Origin: Parcubacteria group bacterium Gr01-1014_8
Lineage (GTDB): Bacteria; Patescibacteriota; Minisyncoccia; Phycocordibacterales; UBA2100
Direction of reading: 5' to 3'
Assembly (NCBI GenBank): GCA_007376385.1
Contig: VMGC01000002.1
Span: forward strand, 1 to 64,000
Length of the DNA stretch: 64,000 nucleotides
Under the pieces are notes generated by a model. The model ran no database searches, was not told the origin of the DNA, and was given only the letters and a program-made list of their open reading frames with translations. Below, in pieces: positions 1 to 64,000 of the stretch. Made by a program: the position numbers and the translations under genes. The stretch's first letter is position 1; each line of letters starts with the position of its first letter.

Positions 1-209
1 AGAACGTCCGCATGAGTCGCTCTCGCTGCGATCTCCGCTTCAATGTATCATTGCTGCATTACCGGCACGAGAGTGCCAAATGTACTGGACCCGTACAATT
101 GTTTGACATTAGGACGGGGCTTACATATAATCCCGCCACGTTGCGGCTTGCCCGGTAAAGTTTAGGGCTTAACTCCGCATTCATTTTACCAGTCTAGTCT
201 TCAAAAAAA

Positions 210-530
210 ATGAAAAAGGACTCAAAAAAGATCGGTATCATGCCTCTTGGCGACCGCGTGCTTGTGAAGCGTGAGGATACGGCTCAGAAGAAATCGCCCG
301 CTGGGATAATTATTCCAGATACGGCACAGAAGGAGAAATCTAAACGAGGGGTTGTCATAACGGTAGGGCCAGGAAAGATCAACGACGAAGGCACGCTTAT
401 TCCGATGTCGGTCAGACCCGGAGCGGAAGTCATATTCAGCGCAGGCTGGGACAACGAGGTCAAACTTGATGATAGCGAAGACGAATATTTTCTCGTTCAC
501 GAGTCGGATATTCTCGCCATCATCAAATAA
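210..530 (+). CDS. groES: co-chaperonin GroES (Hsp10)
   Basis: 106-aa ORF with typical GroES sequence (LGDRVLVK, IIIPDTA, GAEVIFS). It lies directly upstream of groEL. Confidence 0.92.
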   Translation: MKKDSKKIGIMPLGDRVLVKREDTAQKKSPAGIIIPDTAQKEKSKRGVVITVGPGKINDEGTLIPMSVRPGAEVIFSAGWDNEVKLDDSEDEYFLVHESDILAIIK

Positions 531-582
531 TTCTTCGTATTTATTTAGAACTTCAAACCAACCACGTAAAACCTAATTCAGT

Positions 583-2247
583 ATGGCAAAAAAAGTGATT
601 TTCGATGCAGAGGTTCGCGGAGCCTTGAAACGCGGTGTTGACATCGTTGCTGGCGCCGTACGCGTCACGCTTGGTCCCCGCGGGCGTAACGTCGCTCTCG
701 ACCGCTCGTGGGGTTCTCCTACCATCACGAACGATGGTGTTTCTATCGCGAAAGAAATAACCCTCGCGGACAAATTTGAGAACATGGGCGCGGCCATCGT
801 CAAAGAAGTTGCGACAAAAACAAATGACAAAGCAGGAGATGGGACAACGACAGCCGTTGTTCTCATGCAGGCCATCGTGCATGAAGGCTTGAAGCGCACT
901 GCGCTCGGTGCGAATGCGATGATGGTCCGTCGTGGCATCGAAAGGGCGGCAAAAGATGCCGTCGAAGAACTTAAGAAAATGGCAAAACCAATAAAGGGTA
1001 AGAATGATATCCGCCAAGTCGCATCCATTTCCGCTGAATCAGAAGAACTTGGAATAAAGATAGCGGATGTCGTAGAAAAAGTCGGTAAAGATGGCGTCGT
1101 TACAGTCGAAGAATCGCAGTCTATCGGTATCGAAACTGATTATGTAGAAGGCCTCGAATTTGATAAAGGCTATGTCTCTGCGTACATGATAACCAATGCG
1201 GAACGCATGGAAGCGGAGGCGCGCGATGTGCCAATATTGATAACAGACAAGAAGATATCAACCATCAAAGAGATACTTCCGCTCTTGGAAAAACTTGCTC
1301 AATCAGGAAAGAAAGATCTCGTTGTCATCGCGGATGATGTAGACGGAGAAGCGCTTGCAACATTCGTCGTCAATAAACTTCGCGGCGCATTCAACATTCT
1401 CGCCGTTAAAGCACCGGGATATGGCGACAGAAAGAAAGATATGTTGCAGGACATCGCGATCACCGTCGGCGCGCAAGTCATCTCGGAAGATCTCGGAATT
1501 AAGTTGGAGACCGCGGACCTCTCGATGTTGGGGAGAGCGAATCGCGTTGTTGCGACGAAAGACTCCACAGTCATCGTTGGCGGGAAGGGAAAGAAGTCAG
1601 AGATCGAGGCGCGAGTCGCCTCACTGAGGAAGCAGTCGGAGAACATTGATTCGAAATTCGACAAAGAAAAGATCGAGGAGCGGATCGCAAAACTCACTGG
1701 CGGCGTAGCGGTTATTCGCGTGGGCGCTGCAACAGAAACTGAAATGAAATATTTGAAGGACAAGATAGAGGACGCGGTGAACGCTACGAAGGCAGCCATC
1801 GCCGAGGGTATTGTCCCTGGAGGAGGTTCTGCACTCGCAAAGGTCTCTGAAAAACTTGCACGAAAGATAAATCCGAAATCGCACGATGAGGAAACGATAG
1901 GGTATCGAATTCTTCTCACCGCGCTTTCTGCTCCGCTTCTTCAGATAGCGAAGAATTCCGGACGTGAAGATGGTCCGGTCATCCTGCAGGAAATAATCAA
2001 GAAAGGAGGAAACATCGGATTCAACGCCGCGAGCGAGTCTGTAGACGCTGAAATGGTGGACATGATAGAAGCTGGCATCATTGACCCGGTGAAAGTGACG
2101 CGAAGCTGCGTCGAGAACGCAGCGTCAGCTGCCGCAGTTCTTCTCACAACGGAGGCAGCGGTCGCTGATGAACCAGAAGAAAAGAAATCTTCTGCTGGCG
2201 GCGGTATGCCGGGCGGCATGGGAGGAATGGGTGGGGAGGACTACTAG
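583..2247 (+). CDS. groEL: chaperonin GroEL (Hsp60)
   Basis: 554-aa ORF with a canonical GroEL N-terminus ([17 protein letters not shown]) and a C-terminal GGM repeat tail ([15 protein letters not shown]). Confidence 0.95.
2212..2246 (+). repeat. 35-bp direct repeat, copy 1 (groEL 3' end; left flank of the IS200-like element)
   Basis: ggcggcatgggaggaatgggtggggaggactacta is identical to 3087..3121. Confidence 0.85.
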
Positions 2248-3086
2248 TTGAGTTCAGTTTGTCCACAGCATAAAAACCATCAAGGCGACGCCTTGATGGT
2301 TTTTGCTATTATCCGGGAATGGCATTGCGTCGTCAGTCATTTGAAATCGACGAATGGTACCACTGTTACAACCGGGGAATCGATAAGCGTGCGACTTTTA
2401 AGTACGGGCACGATTACGAGCGTTTTCTGCAACTTCTATACCTCTGTAATGCAAAAGAGCCCGTTCATCGCAGCAATTTGACGGCTCGGACTACAAAAGA
2501 GGTTATGAATGTGCCTCGGCAGGCGGAGATTGTATCCATAGGGGCGTATTGTCTTATGCCTAACCATTTTCATTTGCTCGTGAAGGAAAAAACAATTGGT
2601 GGGATCACAGCATTTATGCAGCGTCTTGGCACGGCATATACAATGTATTTCAATATTAAGCATGGTCGTATAGGAAATCTTTTCTATAAACCGTTTCGAT
2701 CTCGGCATGTGATTGACGACAGATATTTCCAGAGGGTTGTTGAGTATTTACACTGTAATCCCGCGGAGCTTTTTGAAGTCAACTGGAAGCAGGGTGTTGT
2801 TAAAGATATGCAGGCGCTTGAAAAAAGAATCTCATCGTATCGATACTCAAGTTTTTCGGATTATCACGAGGAGAAGCCACGTTCGGAGCGGGTAATACTA
2901 TCGCCCGAAGGATTTGAGATCGCAAACGTACGACCTCTTCGACAGATGCTCGGAGAAGCTCGTGCATATTATGCGGATATTGCAATTGATGAAGCAACTT
3001 CGAAAACCATCAAGGCGTCGCCTTGATGGTGGGGTCGCCTTGAGGCTAGAAATGACGGGGTTTTACGTATCACCGTATTTTGGACA
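2247..3086 (+). mobile_element. IS200/IS605-like (RAYT-like) insertion carrying a single HUH Y1 transposase gene
   Basis: An 840-bp segment between 35-bp direct repeats. A subterminal perfect palindrome AAAACCATCAAGGCG-A-CGCCTTGATGGTTTT lies near the left end (about 2268-2298). A near-identical imperfect palindrome lies at the right end (about 3008-3036). The single ORF has the HUH motif. Confidence 0.6.
2319..3026 (+). CDS. IS200/IS605-family (Transposase_17 / RAYT-like) HUH tyrosine transposase
   Basis: 235-aa ORF. It has the HUH motif (YCLMPNHFHLLV) and a downstream YxxxNP tyrosine motif (VEYLHCNPAE) typical of TnpA(IS200) and REP-associated tyrosine transposases. Confidence 0.8.
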   Translation: MALRRQSFEIDEWYHCYNRGIDKRATFKYGHDYERFLQLLYLCNAKEPVHRSNLTARTTKEVMNVPRQAEIVSIGAYCLMPNHFHLLVKEKTIGGITAFMQRLGTAYTMYFNIKHGRIGNLFYKPFRSRHVIDDRYFQRVVEYLHCNPAELFEVNWKQGVVKDMQALEKRISSYRYSSFSDYHEEKPRSERVILSPEGFEIANVRPLRQMLGEARAYYADIAIDEATSKTIKASP

Positions 3087-3121
3087 GGCGGCATGGGAGG
3101 AATGGGTGGGGAGGACTACTA
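3087..3121 (+). repeat. 35-bp direct repeat, copy 2 (duplicate of groEL tail; right flank of the IS200-like element)
   Basis: Identical to 2212..2246. It is followed by the probable original groEL downstream sequence and hairpin. Confidence 0.85.
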
Positions 3122-3147
3122 ACGGCAATATATCTTGAAGAAATATA

Positions 3148-3180
3148 CAGCGGCTCGTTCCCATTAGGAACGAGCCGCTG
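3148..3180 (+). terminator. 14-bp-stem hairpin downstream of the duplicated groEL tail (terminator-like, no U-tract)
   Basis: cagcggctcgttcc-catta-ggaacgagccgctg forms a perfect stem. It is not followed by a T-run, so function as an intrinsic terminator is uncertain. Confidence 0.4.
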
Positions 3181-3207
3181 CTGTATAAGAGGTGTTAGAA
3201 TTTGTGC

Positions 3208-3816
3208 ATGAGTGAATTGAATAGACCGCGAAGTTTTTCGCCACAAGCAGGTTGGAGAACAAAACTTGCGCTCGCGCTCAGTCTTATGCCGGGGCAACTC
3301 GGAGTTGCTTCACATGCTGTGCATGCAGAACCAGGCAGATTCGACGAGATGATGAGAGACGAACAGGTCTTTTTGCGGGATGAGCGGGAAAGTAAAGAAA
3401 AAAGTGACGCGAGAAAACTTGCAGGAGAATTTGCGTTGAAACGTGCGTCTTTAGCAGAGGAAGAAGGCAAGTTGAAGATCCGTTTTAAAACATTCGAAGA
3501 GAGACAGCAGCGTTTGAAAGGGATAATAAACGAACGCGACTCAGCGGGCTTAAGTAAAGGCACCGTTGAAGAGCGCATGTTAGAAGACGAGGCAGGAGAA
3601 GGGACTATCGAGATGCTGGATCTATTGGAGTGGATACGAAAGAAGTATCCTGATCCGTCAAAGATGATAGAGCAATTTACCGAAGAGAGAGATAGAGATG
3701 CTTTAAAAAACGTGCGGCGCATAACTGAGATAATAGAAAAAATGTTGCAACTGCCTGGGACTCTAAAAGACCAGCAAATACTCCTCGAGTTGCTGCTTAC
3801 CCCTGGTTCTGATTAA
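3208..3816 (+). CDS. hypothetical acidic coiled-coil protein
   Basis: The ORF has a plausible start at 3208 (AAGAGG about 14 nt upstream). It is charged and helical, with no recognisable domain. Confidence 0.45.
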   Translation: MSELNRPRSFSPQAGWRTKLALALSLMPGQLGVASHAVHAEPGRFDEMMRDEQVFLRDERESKEKSDARKLAGEFALKRASLAEEEGKLKIRFKTFEERQQRLKGIINERDSAGLSKGTVEERMLEDEAGEGTIEMLDLLEWIRKKYPDPSKMIEQFTEERDRDALKNVRRITEIIEKMLQLPGTLKDQQILLELLLTPGSD

Positions 3817-3842
3817 AGTAAAGCAAGAATTGTAGAGATCGA

Positions 3843-6800
3843 GTGCATCGCACAAGCTCTCATACACAATGTTTGCTCGGTTCAACTGAAAGTGCAGGAT
3901 ACAATAGAGGCACATATCTCATGTCTGAAAAGACACACACGCCCCAGCATTTTTTTGGGCTCCTTTTGGTGCTCGTTTGTCTTGGTTTAATGTTAACGTT
4001 TGCGTTAAAGATCCCGTCGTCAAAAGCGCTCAGCGAGATTCCCGGCGATCCGAGCCCGGATTGCAAGGGGCCCTATTGTGTCAATAAGTCATTCAAAGGC
4101 AGCCCTTATCTCACAGCTGGTTGTGTTGAGCCTAAACAAGGGGAGACACCGACAAAAGACGGACTTATCGGTAAGAAATGTACTGTCACAAAAGATATTT
4201 CATGCACGGGAACTTGTATTGCCCCTCAACCTATTTGTGGTCACGCGAGTACATGTGATGGTAAGCCGGTAAAGAAAGCGGAAATTCCGAATGACCCGTG
4301 CGGATTAAGTCCTTGCCCTCCACCGCCGAACAATAATCAACAAGCCCCAAATAGTCCCGAAGAATCCGGGGGGCCACCTCCTTCGGAAGGAATGCCTCCT
4401 CCGCAATCCGGACTTGAACCTGATTTTTCGAAGTACGGAGAGTGGGGCGCGGAGCCACCGCCATCTGGAACACCTCCTTCTCCGGGGTCGGACTTCAAGT
4501 TCAGCGATTTTGGGGAATTAGGCAGCCTCCCTCCGCCACCAGATGCGCCCCCTTCTTCTGATGCTCCTCCGGGCAGATCTGGCTCAACTGGGTTTAATCC
4601 GCCGCCATCAGCTGGCGATATTAGCAGCGGTTTGGAGAATGTAGCAAAAGGCCTCGGCGACACGCTTTCAAAGATGGGACAAGATTTTATTCAAGCCGCA
4701 GGAGACGCTCTTAACAAAGGAAGAGAAACACTCGAAGACATCCTGCAAAGGCTTGCTGGTGCGGGGGATGGAACACCAGCTCCAACGCCAGATATTAAAA
4801 ACGAGATAGCAAAGAACGAAACAAAGGCAAGCCCAACACCCGCGGCAGAAAAAGGAATTGCTTCAACATACTGGCAACCGCAGAAACTTGCAGGTGGAGG
4901 ACAATTCAATCCAAACGCGATGACTGCGGCACATAAAACGCTTCCATTTGGGACACGTGTACGGGTTACTAATCTTAATAATGGAAGATCGGTCGAAGTG
5001 AAAATAAACGATCGAGGCCCTTATGTTAAGGGTCGCATAATCGACTTGTCGGATGCCGCGGGTAAGGCCATCGGGATCAATCGTTCAACTGCTCCAGTTA
5101 CAGTGGAGGTACTTGGCAAAGGCGCTGTTTCTTCAGGACCCTCGGGCGCGGCCTCGGGTTATCCGGTCGTTTCTCCCTCGGTCGGGCAAGGTTTAGGAGA
5201 AACCGAGCCGCCGTCATTCAACAACTCCACGTACGATGTTGCGCAAGGACTTGGTGAAAGTGAACCCCCATCGTTCAACAATTCCATGTATGATGTTGCG
5301 CAAGGTCTTGGAGAAACTTCGCCACCAGAATTCGGAAACATTGACTGGAGCCAGTACTCTTCGCAAGAGTTCGTAGGAACAGGACTCGGAGAAACCGAGC
5401 CGCCGTCATTCAACAACTCCACGTACGATGTTGCGCAGGGTCTCGGAGAAACGGAACCGCCAGCATTCGACGGTCCCGTAGAATCGCCACCGCTTGCTGA
5501 CGAGCAAGGTTTTATCGATTACGCGAATCAACTTGCAGACGAAACCTTTGCCGATACCATGGAAAAAGTACTCCAAGAGTGGACGGACGCGAAAGCATTT
5601 GCCGATGACATGGCAAAAGTTCTGCAAGAGTGGACTGAGACCAGAATGGCGGAAATGCAGGCAGCCGCTGAGGCTATGGCTGAGCAGTTGCGGGCATGGG
5701 AACAGGAGGCCAAGGACCTGTTGGCCAATATGGTCGCTCCAGAACCAGAAGAACCGCCTGTTGAAGGGATGGGTTTTGAGAAAGAAATTGAACTCGCAAA
5801 TAAAGTTGGTCAAGAAACAGAAGCGGCGCAAGCCGATAAAGCAGCAGCAGAACAGAAAGCTTCCGACGAAGCAGAACAGCAAAGGCGGGATGAACAGCAG
5901 AGGGCCGGAGAAGAATTACAGCGGCAGGCAGATGCGCAGGCCAAAGCGGAGGAACAGCAGCGAAGTGCAGAAGCGGAGCAAGAACGGCTAGATGAACAAC
6001 AGCGCGCAGGTGAAGAAATGCAACGACAGGAAGATGAAAGAGCTGCCGAGATAGAACGCCTCAAGAACGCAGACGCGGAAGATGCTTCCAAAATACCGGG
6101 CAAAGATGAAAAGATCGATTGGGGCAAATACGAGAAAGTTGACCAGTTTGATCAACAAGACAAGGAGTTAGGCGAGGAAATGAAGAGACAAGCTGACGCG
6201 AAAGCGGCAGAAGAAACGGCACGTGAGAAAAGTGCGGAAGCGGAGCGGCAAAGAAGCGCAGATGCAGAGCAAGAGCGATCGGGCGAACAAACAAGAGCAG
6301 GTGAAGAGTTAGAAAGACAAGCGGATGAGAAGGCACGGCAAGAAAAAGCAGCTGAAGAAGAACGTCAGCGACAGGACGAGATGAAGAGAGCAAGCGATGA
6401 AATGAAACGGCAGGCAGATACGTGGGCCGCGAAGGAAAAGAAATTATTCAAAGATACGACCGATGAACTTCGCGCGTGGGCGAAAGAGGACTGGGATAAA
6501 AACTACAAGGATGTGACGCCGGGTAAAACCGCGCCTGCACCGACACAGGGCAAAACTCCACCCGCAGGACCTCCTGCTAAAGCACCGCCAGCTGGTCCGC
6601 CGTCAGGTCCTCCGGGCGGAGGTACACCACCTCCAGGGGATGGAGGCCAGCCAGAAGGCGGCGGGGGCGGCATGGGAGAAATTCTTGGAAAAATCATGGA
6701 AATGTTGAAAGGGCTTCTTGGCATGGGAGGGGGCGGAGGAGGTGGAGGAGAAGAACAGCCAAGGCAACCAACTACGAACCCGTCCTCAACGAACCAACCA

Positions 6801-7103
6801 GGACCTATAGCGCCTCCTGCGAAAAAAGAACCGACAACAGCGAAACCAGTCGTTATCATGGTGGTGAATCCATCGAAGGTCGTCGAGGGCCATGATGCGC
6901 GCGTGTCATGGTCGAGCGTTCGCACACAAGAATGCGATGTTACAGACTCTGAAGGAAATACGATATCTACTGACGCAACCGATGGCACCGTGCTCATCGA
7001 AGACATGACAATAACAACAACGGTAACCATTACATGTTCAGCAGAAGGAAGAGACCCGATCACATCGGAACGGATCATTACCGTTGAGCCGTTCCCGATC
7101 TGA
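3843..7103 (+). CDS. giant secreted/membrane-anchored protein: N-terminal TM anchor, Cys-rich module, Pro-rich linkers, RlpA-like DPBB domain, tandem repeats, long E/Q/R/A coiled coil, C-terminal beta-sandwich-like domain
   Basis: 1086-aa ORF. The start is more likely about 3921 (MSEKTHT...FFGLLLVLVCLGLM). The DPBB region reads ASTYWQ...TAAHKTLPFGTRVRVTNLNNGRSVEVKINDRGPYVKGRIIDLSDAAGKAIG, which matches the RlpA family. The C-terminal approx. 80 aa (VSWSS..ECDV..TDG..EGRDPIT..ITVE) are shared with the next gene. Confidence 0.8.
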   Translation: MHRTSSHTQCLLGSTESAGYNRGTYLMSEKTHTPQHFFGLLLVLVCLGLMLTFALKIPSSKALSEIPGDPSPDCKGPYCVNKSFKGSPYLTAGCVEPKQGETPTKDGLIGKKCTVTKDISCTGTCIAPQPICGHASTCDGKPVKKAEIPNDPCGLSPCPPPPNNNQQAPNSPEESGGPPPSEGMPPPQSGLEPDFSKYGEWGAEPPPSGTPPSPGSDFKFSDFGELGSLPPPPDAPPSSDAPPGRSGSTGFNPPPSAGDISSGLENVAKGLGDTLSKMGQDFIQAAGDALNKGRETLEDILQRLAGAGDGTPAPTPDIKNEIAKNETKASPTPAAEKGIASTYWQPQKLAGGGQFNPNAMTAAHKTLPFGTRVRVTNLNNGRSVEVKINDRGPYVKGRIIDLSDAAGKAIGINRSTAPVTVEVLGKGAVSSGPSGAASGYPVVSPSVGQGLGETEPPSFNNSTYDVAQGLGESEPPSFNNSMYDVAQGLGETSPPEFGNIDWSQYSSQEFVGTGLGETEPPSFNNSTYDVAQGLGETEPPAFDGPVESPPLADEQGFIDYANQLADETFADTMEKVLQEWTDAKAFADDMAKVLQEWTETRMAEMQAAAEAMAEQLRAWEQEAKDLLANMVAPEPEEPPVEGMGFEKEIELANKVGQETEAAQADKAAAEQKASDEAEQQRRDEQQRAGEELQRQADAQAKAEEQQRSAEAEQERLDEQQRAGEEMQRQEDERAAEIERLKNADAEDASKIPGKDEKIDWGKYEKVDQFDQQDKELGEEMKRQADAKAAEETAREKSAEAERQRSADAEQERSGEQTRAGEELERQADEKARQEKAAEEERQRQDEMKRASDEMKRQADTWAAKEKKLFKDTTDELRAWAKEDWDKNYKDVTPGKTAPAPTQGKTPPAGPPAKAPPAGPPSGPPGGGTPPPGDGGQPEGGGGGMGEILGKIMEMLKGLLGMGGGGGGGGEEQPRQPTTNPSSTNQPGPIAPPAKKEPTTAKPVVIMVVNPSKVVEGHDARVSWSSVRTQECDVTDSEGNTISTDATDGTVLIEDMTITTTVTITCSAEGRDPITSERIITVEPFPI
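5185..5460 (+). repeat. intragenic tandem repeats (approx. 75-bp units encoding GLGETEPPSFNNSTYDVAQ)
   Basis: A 50-nt stretch is identical at about 5199-5250 and 5389-5440, with 3-4 repeat units. Confidence 0.8.
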
Positions 7104-7134: not shown

Positions 7135-7151
7135 TTTTGAACAGTTGTTCG
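7135..7151 (+). promoter_or_regulatory. conserved near-palindromic motif TTTTGAACAGTTGTTCG upstream of the 826-aa paralog gene
   Basis: The identical 17-mer occurs at 9686..9702 upstream of the 2389-aa paralog. It lies about 33 bp upstream of the shared TATAAT. Confidence 0.45.
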
Positions 7152-7183
7152 CGCGCCGCACTCATTCGAGCGTTTATTAACTC

Positions 7184-7189
7184 TATAAT
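7184..7189 (+). promoter_or_regulatory. -10-like TATAAT box, 8 nt upstream of the ATG (possibly a leaderless or short-leader mRNA)
   Basis: ctcTATAATGATGAGTAATGCGAAACGCGC is shared 30/30 nt with the region upstream of 10031. Confidence 0.4.
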
Positions 7190-7197
7190 GATGAGTA

Positions 7198-9678
7198 ATG
7201 CGAAACGCGCGCGTCGCGGTTCCTTTGTTCGTAGCAACTATTTTGTGCTGCGCTCTCTTTGTTTTTGTACTTCTTTTCGCACAATCGAGTGAAAGTGCAA
7301 CGCCGCCGGCGGGTTCACCGGTGAATTGCGACGAACCGTACCGGACGTGTATAGCAGCGGCCGATCAAAAGTACGACGTACCGATGTCTACAACAGAAGC
7401 GGACAAGGCAGAGTGCCTAAACCGATGGAAGCTATGCATTACGAAAGACGCCGCATGCCAGTCTACGTTCAAAAGAAACACCGGGGGAAACTGCAGCACA
7501 AAACCGCAATGCAGGCATTGCAAGAACGTGATAACCGACAGCGAGGTGCGCTGCTGCTTTGAGCTGACGCATGGACCAGACGAAGAAAATTCGTGTGCAA
7601 CGAGTTTTGGCGGAAAATGCTATCACGCGGATAGAACATTGAGAAAGCCCCCTCCTTTTCTCGTAGGCTCAAACGATGTGGCGCGCATCATTTGTCCGGA
7701 CTGCATACGAATAGTGAATACCGATGGAAATGTTGTTGCCGTTCACCCGAGTACCCCCGCGCCGCCGAATTTCCAAAGTGTGGACAGCCCGCTCACTACA
7801 ATGGGCGATTTGGCTGCGAGAATTTCGGGCGAGAATGGATTGCCGCCCAACGAACTTCCCATGCAAATTGCACGAGAATACTTCGACTTCAAAAGTCTGA
7901 CTAGTGAGGGCGGATATCTTGACGTAAATACGGGCGAAGAGTATACGGATAGGGCAACAGATCTGGGAAAGACCTTACAGTTCCTGCAAGACAATGCGAC
8001 ATCACTTGACCCGCCAAAGCGTGAAGAGCCGCCTGATGATGGTGCAAATAAGGATACGCCTTGGGAAAAAGACGTCGGGTACAAGGCTGATGACACAAAA
8101 GCTAGCGAAGCGTTGGCGAAAGCGGCTGAACGCGAGCGAGCGGCGGAGCTTCAACGATGGAAAGAGCTCGGGGCCAAGGAAATAGAGGCGCAAAAAAGGG
8201 CAGAGGCCGATGAAGCCAAACGCCGGACAGAGCCGCCGTCTCTTTTGGAGCGCTCGAAGTATGACCTCGAGAAATTCCTGCGCACTGCAGGAATCAAGTC
8301 AACCCTCATTCCTCAAGGTGAGCCTGATGTACCGACGGTTCGTCCGATGTTTCCAACGTCAGCCGATGCTCCAGACCCGAACACAACCGCCGAATCGCGT
8401 TTCGCAGCAGTGCGAGATGCGGCGGAACAGTTTGATAAGTCTTCGAAGGAGCTTAGCGTGCTCCGTGCAGAACACGCAGATAATTATTATGATAAGGATT
8501 TTCGCGACCCGAGACTTCTGTATGCCGAAGAAGTAAATCGTGCCGACCGTGAAAGATTGGCTGCAGCGCTGGGAGCTGCGAAACAAGATCTCCCGCAACC
8601 GCTTGCGGAAAAGCTCGCGGCGCTTGAAAAGATGCACGATGATGCTCGAGCGCGGACAGAGGAAGTGAGAACAGGTTTCGAAAGAGCTACCGCAAATTTT
8701 CAAACGTGGGCAGAACAGAATGGCAAAACCACCCTGGGACATAAAGCAGATACTGATGCATTGTGGCATCGGGAAATACCAAAAGGCGCCGGCTCAAACA
8801 TATTTAACGATTGGTTTCCTGTTTGGATGCAAACGACACAAAGTCCGCAGCGAGAATATAGTGACGTGCGAACATATGACCGAGCGCAGGGGGAAATGTC
8901 CTCGGCAATTCAACGTGCGGAGACCGTCGAGCGTAATGCTGCGGCAGAGATACTTACTATCTTTGCTTCGGCTCCGCCGCCTCCCGTTGTAGCAGCAGCC
9001 GAGCCGAAGGCTTTAGAACCCACGGTGGTTATAGGAGCGGGACTGCCGACGGTTCTGCCATCGGGTCCGCCCCCCGCGCCAGATGATACAGCTGCTCCTC
9101 CTGTGCGACCGCCATCAGAGGACGGACCTGCAGGGCCTCCCTCTAAAACAACGCCGGGAGACGATCCTCCTCCGCCTTCTAAAGCGGCTCCTACGCCGCC
9201 CCCCGCACCCCCTCCGAACGGCCCAGGTCCTTTTCCGTTTCCGACCTACACTGACGGAAATGATAACGGTCAGCAAAACGGTGAAGAAAACAGCGGTGGC
9301 TTCGGTTCCGTTTTTGAGTACTTGAAAAAGGTGCTTGGTTTTGGTACTCCTCCTCAGAATAGTTCGCCTCCTCAACCTCCACCGACTGACCAGAAGACTG
9401 GTCCGGGTTCACAGCCTTACCTCGGTGCGCCGAAAGCAGTTGTCACCTTGATAGTAAGTCCAATAGTCGTTTCCGCTGGGCGTTCAGCGTATGTTTCGTG
9501 GTCAAGTATCAATACGAAAGAATGTGATGTGGGATCTGACGGAAAATTGCTTTCGGACAACAGCACGGACGGGATAGTCACCATCAAAAAGATAAAGACC
9601 TCGACAACTGTTCGCATCTCATGCGTGGTAGAAGGAAGGGACCCGATAACTGCAGAAAAAAAGATCACCGTCGAGTAA
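7198..9678 (+). CDS. secreted Cys-rich/Pro-rich surface protein (paralog family A) with C-terminal beta-sandwich-like domain
   Basis: 826-aa ORF. It has a signal peptide (VPLFVATILCCALFVFVLLFA). The N-terminal Cys-rich module is homologous to that of the 10031 gene. The C-terminal domain is homologous to the C-terminus of the 3843 gene. Confidence 0.8.
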   Translation: MRNARVAVPLFVATILCCALFVFVLLFAQSSESATPPAGSPVNCDEPYRTCIAAADQKYDVPMSTTEADKAECLNRWKLCITKDAACQSTFKRNTGGNCSTKPQCRHCKNVITDSEVRCCFELTHGPDEENSCATSFGGKCYHADRTLRKPPPFLVGSNDVARIICPDCIRIVNTDGNVVAVHPSTPAPPNFQSVDSPLTTMGDLAARISGENGLPPNELPMQIAREYFDFKSLTSEGGYLDVNTGEEYTDRATDLGKTLQFLQDNATSLDPPKREEPPDDGANKDTPWEKDVGYKADDTKASEALAKAAERERAAELQRWKELGAKEIEAQKRAEADEAKRRTEPPSLLERSKYDLEKFLRTAGIKSTLIPQGEPDVPTVRPMFPTSADAPDPNTTAESRFAAVRDAAEQFDKSSKELSVLRAEHADNYYDKDFRDPRLLYAEEVNRADRERLAAALGAAKQDLPQPLAEKLAALEKMHDDARARTEEVRTGFERATANFQTWAEQNGKTTLGHKADTDALWHREIPKGAGSNIFNDWFPVWMQTTQSPQREYSDVRTYDRAQGEMSSAIQRAETVERNAAAEILTIFASAPPPPVVAAAEPKALEPTVVIGAGLPTVLPSGPPPAPDDTAAPPVRPPSEDGPAGPPSKTTPGDDPPPPSKAAPTPPPAPPPNGPGPFPFPTYTDGNDNGQQNGEENSGGFGSVFEYLKKVLGFGTPPQNSSPPQPPPTDQKTGPGSQPYLGAPKAVVTLIVSPIVVSAGRSAYVSWSSINTKECDVGSDGKLLSDNSTDGIVTIKKIKTSTTVRISCVVEGRDPITAEKKITVE

Positions 9679-9685
9679 TTGCACG

Positions 9686-9702
9686 TTTTGAACAGTTGTT
9701 CG
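9686..9702 (+). promoter_or_regulatory. second copy of TTTTGAACAGTTGTTCG motif
   Basis: Identical to 7135..7151. Here it is separated from the TATAAT by the inserted 277-bp TIR element. Confidence 0.45.
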
Positions 9703-9734
9703 AATACAGGCCCCGTTTGAGACGGTATTCGCTC

Positions 9735-10021
9735 TATAACCCCGTGAGATAGTTACGCACTATTTTTAATGCGCGTCTTTATATATCGTTTGCCCCAAGC
9801 AGTTTTAAGATATTTTTCTCGAATGTGCGCGTCCTTAATCGAGGTGGATGCCTCGTAGTAAACAAGTTGCCACGGACCCCTATTTTTTGTTGAGAATACT
9901 TTGTTGCTGTTATGAAGATTGAATCTTCGGCGTAAATTATTCGTAGAGCCCACATAAAACTGCTTGGGGCCACGAATTACATACACATAGTACATGTACC
10001 TAATTATCTCACGGGGTATAA
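9735..10021 (-). mobile_element. TIR-bounded mini-element carrying only a GIY-YIG nuclease gene (TIR CCCCGTGAGATA / TATCTCACGGGG; 5-bp TSD TATAA)
   Basis: The left TIR core is at 9740..9751 and the right TIR core at 10005..10016. TATAA flanks both sides (9735..9739 and 10017..10021). The paralogous empty site at 7181..7210 contains a single TATAA. Confidence 0.6.
9753..9995 (-). CDS. GIY-YIG nuclease family protein (stand-alone URI domain, approx. 80 aa)
   Basis: MYYVYVIRGPKQFYVGSTNNLRRRFNLHN... shows the GIY-YIG signature (YVY..FYVG/YIG, R, H/N). It occupies almost the whole interior of the TIR element. The stop codon abuts the left TIR. Confidence 0.85.
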   Translation of the reverse strand: MYYVYVIRGPKQFYVGSTNNLRRRFNLHNSNKVFSTKNRGPWQLVYYEASTSIKDAHIREKYLKTAWGKRYIKTRIKNSA

Positions 10022-10030
10022 TGATGAGTA

Positions 10031-13000
10031 ATGCGAAACGCGCATGTCGCAGGTGTTTTGTTTGTAATTCTTGCAGCTACTATCTGCAGTGCTGCATTCA
10101 TAGCTCTCGGTTCATCATTTGTGCCTACTGCATCTGCACAAAGTGGACAGGGTAATTGCAAGACGCAATACGATGCGTGTATAAAGGCCGCGAATTCCGC
10201 TGCTGCGAAAGCACAGACCTCTGCGCAAGTACAACAGGCTGCGAAGGATAAAGCATCATGCATGCCGAAGTGGCGCACGTGCATGAACAAATGTAAGCAG
10301 CTTACGAAAGGTGCAGACGGTGCTTCGAGCTGTTCGACGGATAGTGAATGCAAAGGAAAACGCTGCAAGGATACCTATAACGATCTAACGAAAGAGAGAA
10401 AGTGTTGCGTAAATCTTTATGACCTCGGAAAAGAATCGCAAAATTCGTGCCCGAATGAAGTTACCTCTAGTGTAGGGCTGCGATGTTATGAAGATGCTGC
10501 GGCGCCTCATGACCCGACAAAAGGGGGAACGCCTGGGGGCACGCCATCTACGCCAGGCGGACAGCCGGAACAACCTTCGGGAGGAATGCCGCAAATTCCG
10601 CAACCGTCGCCGGGAGAAGGCTCACCGCCGAAAGAGCAACCCAAAGAAGAACCGACGCCAGAGCCGAAAAAGGAACCGACATTGTTTGAGAAATTCGCTC
10701 AGTATCTTGGAGGAGATACACCGAAGACAGATGATGCAAAATCACCGCTCGATTATTTCTTCAAGAAAGATGAGGTTGAGCTTGGTTCAACACCCGCTGA
10801 TACTTTAGGAAAGGATTTCCCCGATGCATCGGACAAATGGTGGAATGATGCTGTTGGGCAAAGCACATTCGGTGCGCCCGAAAATTCAGTAGTAACCACA
10901 GACCAGAGTAATTGGGAGCAATTCAAAGAACATATAGCAAATGGAGATATTGTCGCAGCGGGTGGAGATGTCATTGATGGCGCAAAAAATGTGCTTGGTC
11001 TAGGCGATGAAGTGGCTGCAGAGATTCCAGGCGATACAAAAACACTGACTGATGAAACTCCTGACGTGCCAAAAGAGGGACAACAATATGCTGAAGCAAA
11101 ACCCGGTGCCGCCCCGGAAAAACCGACGTCAGATTTAAGTAAAGAGGAGCAAAAGGCAATCACGGAAAAATCCCTGAAAGATACTGAAGCGAAGATCGCC
11201 GCTACCAACAAGGATCTTCAGAATCCCAATCTTGACGAAGCATCAAAAGAAGCACTTCGGGAAAATCTGAAGGACCTTCAATCGCAGCAAGCGGATCTTA
11301 AAAAGGAAATAAACGATCTCGCTAATCCTCCTGAGGCGATACGGAACAAAGCCATCATGGGTGAAGGTGCGCTAAGTGAACACCAACTGCCGTATGACGC
11401 CGAACCAGGGGGGAGAAAAGTATACGTTGAAACAGATGGACCGAACGGAAAGCATATCGTCGAAGTGGACTCGAAAACGGCGGGGACCGATGCCAATGGG
11501 AAGCCTACGACCCTGGGCGATATCGCCCAAGCAAATGGCGCCGGAAATTCGCCGACAAATCCGCTGCCGATGGATGCAGTGCGGTCAGCGGTGGGTGGAG
11601 ATGAAGGACTGAAGGCAATGACAACTCCTACTATAGAGAAGACAGGCGAGGCTCTTACATACAACCGGCCAGTCGGTCCTAATGATCAGGCAACTCTTGA
11701 TGTTAAAGTCGAAAAAAGTCCGGTCAGCAATTTATATGAAGTCAATCAAGATCCGCTGAAAGTCGCTTCGGAAGGGTATCAAGAGGGAGAGGGCAAAGTG
11801 GTGAACGAGGGCAAATTCCTTTTTGGTGAGGGAGCAAAACCACCACCCGCAGGGGAGCCACCTACAGCGGCGTCTCCGCCACCGCCTGCGGAATCTGAAA
11901 AAAGTGACGCATCAGTCGCACGCTCCCCGAATACGCCCGAAGAATATGCAAAAGCCGCCGAAGAAGCGATCAAGCGATCGATGGTAAATCTGGGGAATGG
12001 TTTTGCAAATGTCGTCGATGCCGCAAGAGAAGGAATTAGTAATGCTGCTGTTGAAGTTCAAAAATGGGCGCACGAGGCGAAACAAGCGGCAGCAGATGCA
12101 TACAATTATGTTGCCGGCACAATAGAAGATATACGTCCCGCAGGAAATCCTACAGACGTACAAGCGCCCTCCCCCGGGCCGGTGGCGCAGCAGCCGAGTC
12201 CATCGCCGGGCGATAATCCAGGCGGAGGCACTGTTGTACCTGATACACAAGGAACCATTCCTATAAAAGCGCCCACTGGTCCCGGAGATCAAAATCCTCC
12301 GGTTAAGTCTGGGGACGGATCGACTGATGGAGGAAAAACGGAACCAACGATTACTCCCACGGATAAACCTGGCAAAGACATAGACGCGCCTGTTCCTGAT
12401 CCGCAAGGGAAAACAAAACAACCGACAACGCCGAGTCCGGAAGGAAAGGAGCAGACGGTACCACAGCCTGCGCCGCCAAGCTCTCCTCCAAATCGGGGTT
12501 GGTTTAAAAGAATCGCCGATGCGCTCCGTGGTTTTCCGATTCCCGGTCCCTCACCTTCGCCGACAAATATCTCACCGTCCGTATTTCAACCGCAGCCACA
12601 AGGTCAAGATCAAAAGCAGGCCCCGCAGCCAACGCCTTCAGAAAAGAAAGGTCAACCGGAACCGGATCCGAAAGGGACCGCAAAAAGTAATTTTGCTCCG
12701 AAAACAAAAAATAACCTCCAGGAGTTTTTGGCAGATGCGCTCAAAAAATTCGCAGATGGAATTGCGAAGCGAACAGGTCAAGATCCTGGAGAAACTCCAG
12801 GAGGACAAGGTCCGAGCAAGACCGCGAAAGATAACGATCCGAATAAACCCCTTGGGAACAGCTTGGAGAATCCGAAGCAAGTGAAAGATGGAATTCCTGC
12901 GAAGAGCAATACCGGCGAAGCTGGAACCGGCAAAGGTCAGGAGGGAAAGCAGCAACAGCAGAAGGGAGCAAAAGACCAGGAAGGGCAGAAAAAAGGAGAC

Positions 13001-26383: not shown

Positions 26384-26838
26384 CTGCGCTGGGTAGTCGC
26401 CCCGTGAGATAATTGCTCAGATATGTACTACGTGTACGTGCTTTGGGGCAAGGGGTATCTGAAGTTGCGTATCAAACATAGGGAGTAACTATCTCACGGG
26501 GAGGAAAGTCCGGGCACAGGCCCTTTTTGGGCAGCAGGGTAGCGGGTAACGCCCGTACGCCGCAAGGCGAGAGGTGCGAACAGAGACGCTTCCGACGAAA
26601 GGTAGGAAGCATCTCCGAAGGTCGAAAGGCTCTTGGAGACGAGCTCTTCAGGCGACTGGAGAGGTGCAACGGCAAAATCCTTACTTCTGTGCAAGACCGT
26701 GTCCAGTTGGGGTTTTATTCAATTGATAAAACTTCATCTGGAAGAGTCGCTAGAGGTGAGCGGTAACGCTCATCCTAAGATAAATGACTGCACATTCCGT
26801 CTTAGACGGAAGGACAGAACCCGGCTTATAGGCGCAGC
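26384..26838 (+). ncRNA. rnpB: RNase P RNA (bacterial type A-like)
   Basis: It contains the conserved CR-I AGGAAAGTCCGGGC (26501-26514) and CR-V ACAGAACCCGGCTTA (26815-26829). The ends are approximate. Candidate P1/P2 pairing is CTGCGC (26384-26389) with GCGCAG (26832-26837). Confidence 0.75.
26400..26501 (+). mobile_element. copy of the CCCCGTGAGATA/TATCTCACGGGG TIR element (102 bp, no ORF, no TSD) at the RNase P RNA P3 position
   Basis: The TIR cores are at 26400..26411 and 26490..26501. The right TIR abuts AGGAAAGTCCGGGC. Confidence 0.55.
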
Positions 26839-27240
26839 GAAATGAGCGAGGCGAAAAAGCCTCGCTTTTTCGTATCCGAATGAGCAAGCCTAGGAGCGTA
26901 GCGATATAGACGCAGACAGACAGGCGAAGCAGAAATGCTTCGCTTTTCTGCTTCGGAGCAAACGTTAGATCCAGCGAAATGAGCGACCAATTTTTGTTGG
27001 CCGCAGACGTTACAAAAATGGGAGTGCCCCTGTGGTGCGAAACGAAAAAGCTTTGCTTTTTCATTTCCGAATGAGCAAGCTTATATGAGCCTTGGCGAAT
27101 TGAGGCGCAGCGCAGCGAGCAACGCAAACGAGTGTTGCTCGTTTGCGTTTGAACCAGCAAGTTTGGGAGCGTAGCGATATAGCACGCAACAAAAAAGTCA
27201 GCTCGGAAGGCCTCACCTCTTCTTTTTTTCGTATGTTAAA
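26836..27240 (+). repeat. hairpin-rich degenerate tandem repeat region
   Basis: These units repeat: GCGAAATGAGCGA (26837, 26953); CGAAAAAGCYTYGCTTTTTC..TCCGAATGAGCAAGC (26852, 27047); GGAGCGTAGCGATATAG (26893, 27164). There are several 9-10 bp stem hairpins. Confidence 0.6.
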
Positions 27241-55747: not shown

Positions 55748-55876
55748 TATGACCCCGTAACGAAATGTGCCTTAGGCTTGAACATCATATGAAAACAAAT
55801 CACCAAAACGGACAAATCAACAAAGTCGAACTTTATCTGTCGAGGATAGCAAGCGAAATGCGAAAGCGCAGGTTTC

Positions 55877-56025
55877 GCATTTCCGAGCGACACAGACAGC
55901 AAAGGTTTAAAACCCCGCGGCTTGCCTGCCTGTGCGATGCACGCAGACAGGCCGCGGAATTTGGGAAACGAGCAGCGCTCGTTTTCCAGAGTCCAGGGCT
56001 TGCCCTGGGGGTTGAAACCTTTCAT
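55877..56025 (+). repeat. REP-like repeat copy 1 (with nested GC-rich palindrome insertion)
   Basis: It shares gcatttccgagcgacRcagacagcaaaggtttaaaaccccgcggcttgcc ... gggttgaaacctttcat with 63362..63433. Copy 1 carries an extra approx. 77 bp holding three hairpins. Confidence 0.7.
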
Positions 56026-56084
56026 CCGACCACGCCGCGGCAGCCGGCAGGCGTCTGCCGCAAAGGCACATTTTCTAACGGAGT

Positions 56085-61095: not shown

Positions 61096-61297
61096 CTTTA
61101 TCTATCGTTTATTGCGGCTAGCGAGGAATCGAGGCGAGAGATTGCTCTCATCTCGTCCGAGCGACGACGCAACATACGGGTCGAATACCCCGCGGCTTGC
61201 CGCGGGTGAGGACGTGCGAAGCGCGTTCCTCATGGTGGGGCTTGCCCCGTGGTATGAATACCCTTTTTATTCCCTGGTGTACGAGAGGGAGGTGAGG

Positions 61298-63267: not shown

Positions 63268-63361
63268 TGCGCTGGACAATAGCACGAGATACACACGTAG
63301 GCAAATAGAGGGGCCCTCTTTATTTGCGAGCGTTGCGAGAGAAACGCAGAAGAGCACTTTT

Positions 63362-63433
63362 GCATTTCCGAGCGACGCAGACAGCAAAGGTTTAAAACCC
63401 CGCGGCTTGCCCGTATGGGTTGAAACCTTTCAT
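63362..63433 (+). repeat. REP-like repeat copy 2
   Basis: See 55877..56025. The imperfect 13-bp stem AAAGGTTTAAAACCC / GGGTTGAAACCTTT forms a stem-loop. Confidence 0.7.
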
Positions 63434-64000
63434 ACGAGAGATGTCGCCGCGATTGATTTGTAACGGCGCAGATAACCAGGAAGTTCTGTGAGTGCAACGG
63501 CTTCCTGCGAGTTCGTTGCGACCTCTCGCACGAGCACCGTTCCTTCCATTGCTTCTTTGTGCCCCATCAGTAAGAGGTGAGACACGCTTGTCTTCTTTGC
63601 GTGTTCCATTTGTTCGCCTAGGCGCTCATACATAAGGGATTGATGCACCGGAATTCCTGCGTGGCGGAGCGTTTCGAGCACAGAGAGTGCCTTGCGGCGC
63701 GCTTCCATGCCAAGGTGTGCGAAATAAAGGGATGGTGCCATGCGCACGGCAGGTTTAACGCGCGTCTTTCCTCGCAGCTCGCAAGCGATGGATACGACGA
63801 CAGCAGGAGTCTCTCGTGCGGCAAAGCGCGAGGCTAGAGGGTCATAGCGTCCGCCGCTTGCGAAAGGAATTCGCGAGCCCGTTTCTTCATCGACTGACGC
63901 CATTTCAAATAACGTATGCGCCCAAAAATCGCGGCTTCCGAGTACGCTGGGCGAGAGTTCGTATGGAACGCCGAATACTTCGAGATATTCAAGGAGGTCC
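63430..64000 (-). CDS. hisS: histidyl-tRNA synthetase, 3' portion (gene continues beyond window end)
   Basis: Motif 3 GGRYD and the anticodon-binding domain are present. The reading frame stays open to position 64000 (...DLLEYLEVFGVPYELSPSVLGSRDFWAH...). Confidence 0.8.
   Translation of the reverse strand, partial: DLLEYLEVFGVPYELSPSVLGSRDFWAHTLFEMASVDEETGSRIPFASGGRYDPLASRFAARETPAVVVSIACELRGKTRVKPAVRMAPSLYFAHLGMEARRKALSVLETLRHAGIPVHQSLMYERLGEQMEHAKKTSVSHLLLMGHKEAMEGTVLVREVATNSQEAVALTELPGYLRRYKSIAATSLV

Follow-up and report, generated by a model that had tools for sequence, protein, structure and literature searches.

At the 3' end of the groEL gene in the window analysed here (the whole stretch of 64,000 nucleotides from contig VMGC01000002.1 of Parcubacteria group bacterium Gr01-1014_8), an 840-bp insert (2247-3086) is bracketed by two copies of the last 35 bases of groEL. 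The insert is a REPtron/TIRtron-type unit, in which a probably leaderless gene for a Y1 endonuclease of the HUH superfamily, similar to the REP-associated tyrosine transposases (RAYTs), stands between inverted copies of its own palindrome. Most likely, the 35-bp repeat is not a target duplication made by this transposase. We hypothesize, and give it about an even chance, that recombination brought in the element together with a groEL end and that the resident end was thereby displaced, the repeat being the overlap of the two ends.

The 35-mer GGCGGCATGGGAGGAATGGGTGGGGAGGACTACTA occurs exactly twice (2212-2246 and 3087-3121), the two copies are identical at 35/35 positions, and no match with up to three mismatches was obtained in 100 shuffles. 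Similarity breaks directly outside the repeat, which ends exactly at the groEL stop codon, and the stops differ, being TAG after the first copy and TAA after the second. Direct repeats of the end of the target gene, as known from integrative elements, thus flank the element in the window, and they are also present at L135, L015 and L029 (L-numbers are labels of loci encoding relatives of the HUH protein, drawn from genome and metagenome collections). Y1 HUH elements (IS200/IS605, RAYTs) are textbook cases of transposition without target duplication, and to our knowledge no HUH/Y1, IS91 or Helitron element makes such duplications. The element, its open reading frame (ORF), the motifs, the hairpins and both 35-mers are all present where a first-pass annotation of this DNA had placed them; a reading of the repeat as a target duplication made by the transposase is doubtful, since most family loci lack such a repeat and the copies at L135 and L015 are allele-like.

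The groEL site is empty in L081 and L084, which belong to the closest GroEL relatives (89-93% identity): both have only one tail, which stops at TAA, and show no repeat within 2.5 kb. The empty-site comparison that the first-pass annotation had proposed therefore shows that the duplication did not pre-exist and, since the single tail of these relatives ends in TAA, the TAA copy in the window is ancestral, in agreement with the earlier suggestion that the second copy is followed by the probable original groEL hairpin.

For the comparison with other members of the family, the best 160 loci were taken from collections that hold more than 580 (genomes) and more than 580 (metagenomes) family loci, and about 140 distinct loci were scanned for flanking duplications. 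The DNA outside the hairpins on both sides of each element was compared at the nucleotide and protein level, with non-cognate pairs as null. A flanking duplication is absent in most family loci, and only the window, L015 and L135 are clearly above the null. At L135, the first 20 codons of htpX are found on both sides of the element and 7/7 differences between the copies are synonymous (P=6e-5 under random substitution), including a recoded Ser-Ser pair (AGT TCG vs TCG AGC); the displaced htpX copy is still ATGA-coupled to the upstream gene, and the functional gene uses the other copy. The duplication at L015 comprises 63 nt of the folD tail; its copies differ at 17 positions but keep 15/21 residues (P=0.003-0.008 under neutral decay), and the changes include Ser TCC/AGC and Arg CGN/AGG switches. 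Since the copies at L135 and L015 differ almost only synonymously, one copy of each pair seems to come from a separately evolving functional gene, and not from duplication in situ followed by decay. The most parsimonious scenario is an import of the element along with the end of the adjacent gene, in which one side was resolved by homology within this gene, and the other was joined without homology some dozens of bases into the resident gene end, now a relic. By analogy, the same process may have made the repeat in the window.

Two further loci have borderline scores. At L029, the duplication covers 17 nt that encode the C-terminus of a convergent gene, with an in-frame stop retained in the relic; the L111 element, 82% identical to that of L029 at the DNA level, adjoins apparently the same gene, and no duplication was seen there. 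At L006, 24 nt including the stop are duplicated and 3/4 differences are synonymous. Repeats are thus confined to a minority of loci and vary in length from 17 to 63 nt. In the window, L006 and L135, the outer edge of the repeat is also the end or the start of a coding sequence, presumably because the donor has the element or unrelated intergenic DNA beyond this edge. Small ORFs separate the HUH unit from the duplicated gene end at L135 (1143-1349, minus strand, 68 aa) and at L006 (4764-4925, 53 aa, with a CxxC...CxxC pattern). Several other candidate repeats were discarded: those of L100 and L096 are different tRNA genes flanking the element, that of L053 is a 15-mer internal to two TPR-like genes that are distant from the element, those of L043, L039 and L045 are extra hairpin copies, and that of L069 is a terminator-like T-run.

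If the element was imported with a groEL end, the donor DNA would have consisted of this end followed by the element and, because the copies in the window are identical, its source would have been either a very close relative or a sister chromosome, the latter by way of a circle with the tail included. Recombination within groEL homology would account for one side; on the other, a non-homologous joint, 56 nt past the right hairpin, would connect the element to position -35 of the resident groEL. Such an event would be of the Campbell type (for a circle) or a homology-facilitated illegitimate recombination (for a linear fragment), and its second, non-homologous joint was possibly made by the HUH enzyme. 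The end now in use would be the one contiguous with the element and terminated by TAG, and the resident end would lie on the far side, keeping its TAA and native terminator. Conceivable alleles are an empty site, a groEL-TAG-element arrangement joined directly to ACGGCAAT, and an element at -35 without the first copy. Three features of the window fit this overlap scheme: a complete left end directly adjoins the functional tail, the stops differ, and the native terminator stays with the relic.

A spare end of the target gene is carried by islands and prophages specific for tRNA, tmRNA or dusA genes. As in these integrative elements, the direct repeats described here consist of the end of a host gene, with the gene-attached copy functional and the displaced copy retaining its native flank, and the copies at L135 and L015 differ as alleles do. 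Unlike these elements, the insert contains no tyrosine or serine integrase, the HUH gene being its sole ORF, and the repeats resemble occasional by-products more than obligatory att sites.

Several points weigh against an import by recombination. The synonymous-divergence test is inapplicable to the window, where the copies are identical, and an origin in situ fits these copies equally well. We found no donor-type allele (groEL-TAG-element without the relic), and the closest homologue, 67% identical, is on a 2.3-kb contig without groEL. Between the relic-side junction and the hairpin closest to it there are about 5, 8, 14-17, 56 and about 300 nt, distances too inconsistent to support a defined HUH cleavage site. 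No duplications other than those of the window, L015 and L135 exceed the null, L029 and L006 being borderline. Finally, duplication in situ could also have given the synonymous pattern of L135 and L015 if the functional gene was later replaced by another allele.

In an alternative reading, the element transposed into the groEL stop and the repeat arose in the same genome, possibly by aberrant joining of two sites during single-strand insertion, by template switching at the hairpins, or by tandem duplication of the tail plus the element with subsequent precise excision of one element copy. The perfect identity of the two copies, with similarity stopping right outside, would suit this origin, and, like those of L006, L082 and L167, the left junction has the look of a normal Y1 junction, about 24 nt away from the hairpin. 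GC skew is positive across the whole window, so that the presumed lagging-strand template would contain the element's coding strand, as expected of single-strand transposons and of IS608-type insertion, a weak argument with a 50% prior. Nevertheless, we hold an origin in situ to be somewhat unlikely: target duplications are not known for elements of this kind, most family loci have none, the two-allele signatures of the diverged copies at L135 and L015 are not given by duplication in situ alone, and the repeat ends exactly at the stop codon, with a different stop on each side.

An error of assembly was also considered, since the window belongs to a metagenome-assembled genome and strain mixtures are common in such data, so that the assembler might have joined two strain variants of the groEL 3' region. 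We find this scarcely credible, because the junctions share no sequence and the architecture recurs in independent assemblies. A de Bruijn mis-join requires a shared junction k-mer, which is missing at GGACA/GGCGGC (the slash marks the junction), both junctions are unique sequence, and the same arrangement of repeat, element and repeat is present in independent assemblies of other studies (L015, L135 and L029).

The left end of the element abuts the groEL stop (CTACTA/G). For the true right end there are two candidates, 3049 and 3086, the last 37 nt of the right flank of the insert running to the GGACA/GGCGGC junction. The first-pass annotation had described hairpins at both ends, which we confirmed, and had taken the right one for an imperfect copy, which it is not: it is a shorter but perfect palindrome, and positions 2276-2303 and 3003-3030 are exact reverse complements at 28/28 nt, among them the centre base (A in the left palindrome, T in the right one). 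The gene is thus enclosed by inverted palindromic repeats, as in RAYTs and REPtrons. The left hairpin (fold energy -17.4 kcal/mol, z -8.6) stands at -47 from the ATG, close to the family median of -48, and the right hairpin, within the ORF, codes for the terminal residues KTIKASP. The putative -10 box is so close to the start codon (Table 1) that a leaderless mRNA is implied for the HUH gene and, as this gene would have a promoter of its own in the interval from the hairpin to the ATG, autoregulation through binding of the enzyme to the hairpin is conceivable. REP-like palindromes had been said to be scattered through the window; for palindromes of the hairpin's kind this does not hold, as no copy of the arm was found in the 64 kb beyond the two ends of the element. 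The window also contains no second HUH copy.

GroEL is left intact by the insert. The groESL transcript is now probably ended by the left hairpin of the element together with its A5/T5 flanks, and the old groEL terminator (DNA fold -19.8 kcal/mol, z -8.9) would now stand 3' of the HUH gene. No RNA family was detected at E up to 1 by an Rfam search of positions 1-5000 of the window.

Table 1. Features of the groESL operon and of the inserted element in the window.
Feature	Position	Strand	Remarks
groESL promoter TTGACA-17-TATAAT	103-131		perfect match (promoter scan)
groES	210-530	+	106 aa; first gene of the operon; from the ORF list, Cpn10 at the equivalent position in relatives
groEL	583-2247	+	554 aa; TAG stop at 2245-2247, its G being base 1 of the insert
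Repeat copy 1	2212-2246	+	last 35 bases of functional groEL; base 2247 completes TAG
Left-end spacer	2248-2271	+	carries TTTGTCCACA at 2258-2267, DnaA-box-like (TTATCCACA)
Left palindromic hairpin, 16+1+16, A5...T5	2272-2304	+	perfect; probable present groESL terminator
-10 box TATTAT	2307-2312	+	6 nt 5' of ATG; putative function
HUH/Y1 (RAYT-like) gene	2319-3026	+	235 aa; sole long ORF of the insert
Right palindromic hairpin, 12+1+12	3003-3030	+	perfect; overlaps the last 7 codons and the TGA stop (3024-3026)
Right flank of the insert	3031-3086	+	partial third arm copy GGGGTCGCCTTGA at 3031-3043; CTAG at 3046-3049
Repeat copy 2 with TAA	3087-3122	+	displaced, non-coding resident groEL tail; TAA at 3120-3122, as in relatives
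Native groEL terminator hairpin, 14+5+14	3148-3180	+	now downstream of the HUH gene

The 235-aa protein matches the Pfam family PF01797 (Y1_Tnp) over residues 40-124 with 29.1 bits (gathering score 23), which bears out the HUH-family assignment of the first-pass annotation. NHFHLL corresponds to residues 82-87 and is followed by a Y143-x-x-x-N147-P148 motif. In an alignment of the protein with its homologues (25 proteins, 52-67% identity), the residues H83 and H85 of the HUH motif and Y143 and N147 of the YxxxN motif are invariant, as are several residues of the C-terminal extension (e.g. W156, Y174, Y176, S177, S178, Y217 and Y218). This helical extension (about residues 150-230) is conserved, and an (I/V)KA(S/T)P ending, encoded by the right hairpin, is shared by 7/25 of the aligned proteins (the query and 6 homologues). 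Because of the Pfam match and the invariant HUH and YxxxN residues, we conclude that the protein is an intact RAYT-like Y1 HUH endonuclease, presumably catalytically active to judge from its sequence.

The protein has the fold of a Y1 transposase, and its structure is nearer to that of TnpA-REP than to those of the IS608 or ISDra2 TnpA; together with its length, this supports the earlier proposal of a RAYT-like protein rather than a classic IS200 TnpA. A sequence search of the PDB gave only a match to ISDra2 with E=0.66, the cut-off of the NCBIfam family REP_Tyr_transpos (NF047646) was not reached (37.8 bits vs 80), and neither a Bac_DnaA_C nor a helix-turn-helix domain was detected in the protein. 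No tyrosine or serine site-specific recombinase is present in the insert, where the HUH gene is the sole ORF with a family match. Searching 5.8 billion proteins yielded 1,893 relatives (50-67% identity over the full length, 220-240 aa), and those with a taxonomic name are nearly all from Parcubacteria, Kaiserbacteria or Paceibacterota.

We were able to recognize the same organization in many members of the family. Counting perfect hairpins of at least 9 bp in the 108 unique loci with enough flank, a left hairpin is present in 74/108 (median start -48 from the ATG), a right hairpin by the stop codon also in 74/108 (median +2.5), and both in 59/108; in 45 of these 59 an apical 9-mer is common to the two hairpins. 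Hairpin sequences vary between elements, with cores such as AAGGCG-N-CGCCTT, GAGGTG-N-CACCTC and GAGATG-N-CATCTC. A TAnnnT box is located at -12 to -7, with T-12, A-11 and T-7 each kept in 66-80% of 87 loci. The motif T[CT]C[AC]CA occurs within 30 nt to the left of the left hairpin in 15/61 loci (1.2 expected, P=8e-13), is restricted to the coding strand and to the left side, and is often part of a full DnaA-box-like TTATCCACA; this enrichment indicates that the left end is marked as part of the unit. A DnaA-box-like 9-mer (TTATCCACA or TTGTCCACA) was observed directly to the left of the left hairpin in the window (2258-2267), L017, L044, L158, L063 and L027. Distant copies of the hairpin arm, as would accompany REP-like dispersal, were found in just 3 loci over 324 kb of the relatives' flanks, and on this sequence evidence the family members are not REP-dispersing RAYTs. 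In the reduced genomes of Patescibacteria, such units thus form a large and well-defined family, with its own promoter, paired hairpins and a DnaA-box-like left-end motif.

Part of the family is syntenic, the flanking DNA being 75-97% identical and the HUH protein only 55-80%; many members are found at corresponding positions across genomes, e.g. upstream of the RNase P RNA gene or between the same two genes. These observations, the lack of a second copy in the window and the restriction of the 90%-identity cluster of the 235-aa protein to one contig would suit a domesticated, immobile RAYT-type resident, the repeat at groEL then having an unrelated origin, e.g. slippage in the repetitive GGM-coding tail. 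We consider this quite improbable. Close relatives have empty groEL sites, and in other pairs the same element type stands in unrelated flanks (L002 and L005, two copies in one genome; also L008/L095 and L001/L006). Furthermore, gene-end repeats recur around other members, and slippage would yield a tandem repeat, not two copies exactly bracketing 840 bp. Some genomes carry 2-3 diverged family copies, paralogues within one genome being at most about 84% identical.

Several arrangements within the family were noticed. In several Paceibacterota genomes, the RNase P RNA gene (Rfam RF00010, 110-127 bits) is immediately preceded by an element of one subfamily, an arrangement that is conserved (L044 3956-4289, L130 1147-1447, L054 4737-5080 and L045 4745-5087); the proteins of this subfamily end in ...ADSDIP and its hairpins are CGTAAGGTGACACCTTACG. 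L112 and L150 (and also L018, L104, L155 and L158) are orthologous loci with flanks 89-97% identical at the DNA level, and the HUH cassette that they contain (about -120 to about +40 past the stop) has sharp boundaries and only about 70% identity (74% for the protein), which may reflect either very fast evolution or replacement of the cassette at a fixed site. The hairpins of L086 (735-760 and 1482-1506) have two mismatches each, yet the left and right 25-mers are perfect inverted copies, which suggests co-evolution of the two ends, or an exchange of arms between them, and not a separate maintenance of each hairpin; insertion of one hairpin into another, apex to apex, was discarded as an explanation, since ends that are mutual inverted copies explain the pattern equally. 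A family member also lies within a tRNA gene array (Val, Pro, Pro, element, Ala) in L100 (649-2366) and L096 (538-2250).

The end of groEL has been occupied more than once. In L082, L083 and L169, a different Y1 gene (229 aa) lies on the groEL strand, with hairpins from 23 nt after the TAA stop; in L167, a third Y1 type lies on the opposite strand, with a hairpin from 26 nt after the TAG stop of groEL; in the window, the left hairpin begins 24 nt after the groEL stop. The Y1 proteins of the window, the L082 group and L167 share a mutual identity of only 27-34%. Distantly related Y1 elements thus appear to have landed independently at the groEL stop, and their presence at the same position in relatives identifies it as a recurrent landing place. 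In L071, a family member convergent with groEL is located about 240 nt away. No flanking duplication was found in L082, L071, L085 or L086, and no groEL-tail relic was seen in L167, which was read by eye only. The L082 element (4686-5467) contains TACAAGTCAGACTTGTA doublets, and the L167 element (2215-3010) contains ATATCGACCTCGTAGGTCGATA, with one copy also intragenic, and TTATCCAC adjoining the far hairpin. CTACTAG is found at the junction in the window, in L167 and, at an unrelated gene, in L006; CTAG as a general target was discarded, since its enrichment is too weak (P=0.23 on the left, 0.003 on the right).

Compared with known systems, the unit resembles the E. coli TnpA-REP REPtron (RAYT, PDB 4ER8) in its HUH and YxxxN motifs, in the two inverted palindrome copies that bracket the gene, in the low copy number and in a family that is partly syntenic across genomes. 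It differs from it in having no dispersed REP/REPIN population and a score below the RAYT cut-off (37.8 vs 80), an additional C-terminal extension of about 85 aa, near-perfect hairpins with a 1-nt centre and no GTAG tag, and in that several members clearly occupy different sites. With the IS200/IS605 elements (IS608, ISDra2), which have subterminal hairpins and normally insert without target duplication, it shares hairpins at both ends, a left junction about 20-25 nt 5' of the left hairpin and, in most family loci, the lack of a flanking duplication, the window having its 35-bp repeat. Unlike in these elements, the protein is about 80-100 aa longer and nearer to TnpA-REP (IS200-type TnpA has about 130-155 aa), both hairpins are the same palindrome and form an inverted repeat, in place of a different structure for each end, identical copies were not observed, the window having one copy, and there is no tnpB.

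Longer RAYT-like Y1 proteins with a conserved C-terminal extension, associated with inverted repeats rather than with abundant REPs and predominating in REP-free genomes, are described as TIRtrons/TIRYTs (Di Nocera et al., 2013; PMC3733652) and as subclass 2.1 of TnpA-Y1 (Quentin et al., 2018; PMC6006769). The family described here matches the picture of REPtrons and TIRtrons and would correspond to the long TnpA-Y1 proteins of subclass 2.1; a DnaA-box-like motif flanks the left repeat here, whereas none was found in those studies (PMC3733652; PMC6006769). Less ordinary are the reuse of the groEL stop by unrelated Y1 elements, this left-end motif and the allele-like gene-end duplications. The terms 'target site' and 'duplication' do not occur in the text of Di Nocera et al. 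(2013; PMC3733652), and the single 'duplication' in the available part of Quentin et al. (2018; PMC6006769) concerns gene duplication; within these limits, allele-like gene-end duplications are not mentioned in either (by term search in the former).

Other repeated sequences were noticed elsewhere in the window. A segment of ~150 nt is repeated with 95-96% identity at 55873-56029 and 63358-63437, 7.5 kb apart; it holds GGTTTAAAACCCCGCGGCTTGCC and palindromic GC-rich stretches, and a third, partial copy lies at 61179-61201. At 26830-27182 there are three related units, 190-270 nt apart, each with a terminator-like hairpin (e.g. GCGAGGCGAAAAAGCCTCGCTTTTTCG) and ending in GAGCGTAGCGATATAG. Repeated upstream regions at 7135-7233 and 9686-10066 (TTTTGAACAGTTGTTCG...CTCTATAA, TATAATGATGAGTAATGCGAAACGCG...) probably arose by duplication of the promoters and leaders of paralogous genes. 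Directly downstream of the groEL region, positions 3843-7103 contain an ORF of 1,086 aa, of Pro/Gly/Glu-rich low complexity and with internal 91-nt repeats (5189-5471), in which a stretch resembles, by eye only, RlpA-type double-psi beta-barrel proteins.

The two-allele gene-end duplications found in a minority of loci suggest that recombination through conserved neighbours, and not transposition alone, moves these elements between lineages. On a more speculative level, and with low confidence, the RAYT-like HUH elements of Patescibacteria may pass from lineage to lineage as cassettes that swap gene ends, each carrying a spare end of its target gene. They would settle at the ends of conserved genes (groEL, the RNase P RNA gene, tRNA arrays, folD and htpX), the conserved gene serving as attachment or homology site and the HUH enzyme or the hairpins making the second joint. 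If true, this would constitute an integrase-free route of site-specific integration for a family of single-strand DNA transposases, and it is relevant to how REP-less RAYT-like genes persist and move. Should the HUH enzyme take part in the joining, it would represent a new mode of integration; should it not be involved, the repeats would still be a useful natural marker of horizontal import in unculturable organisms.

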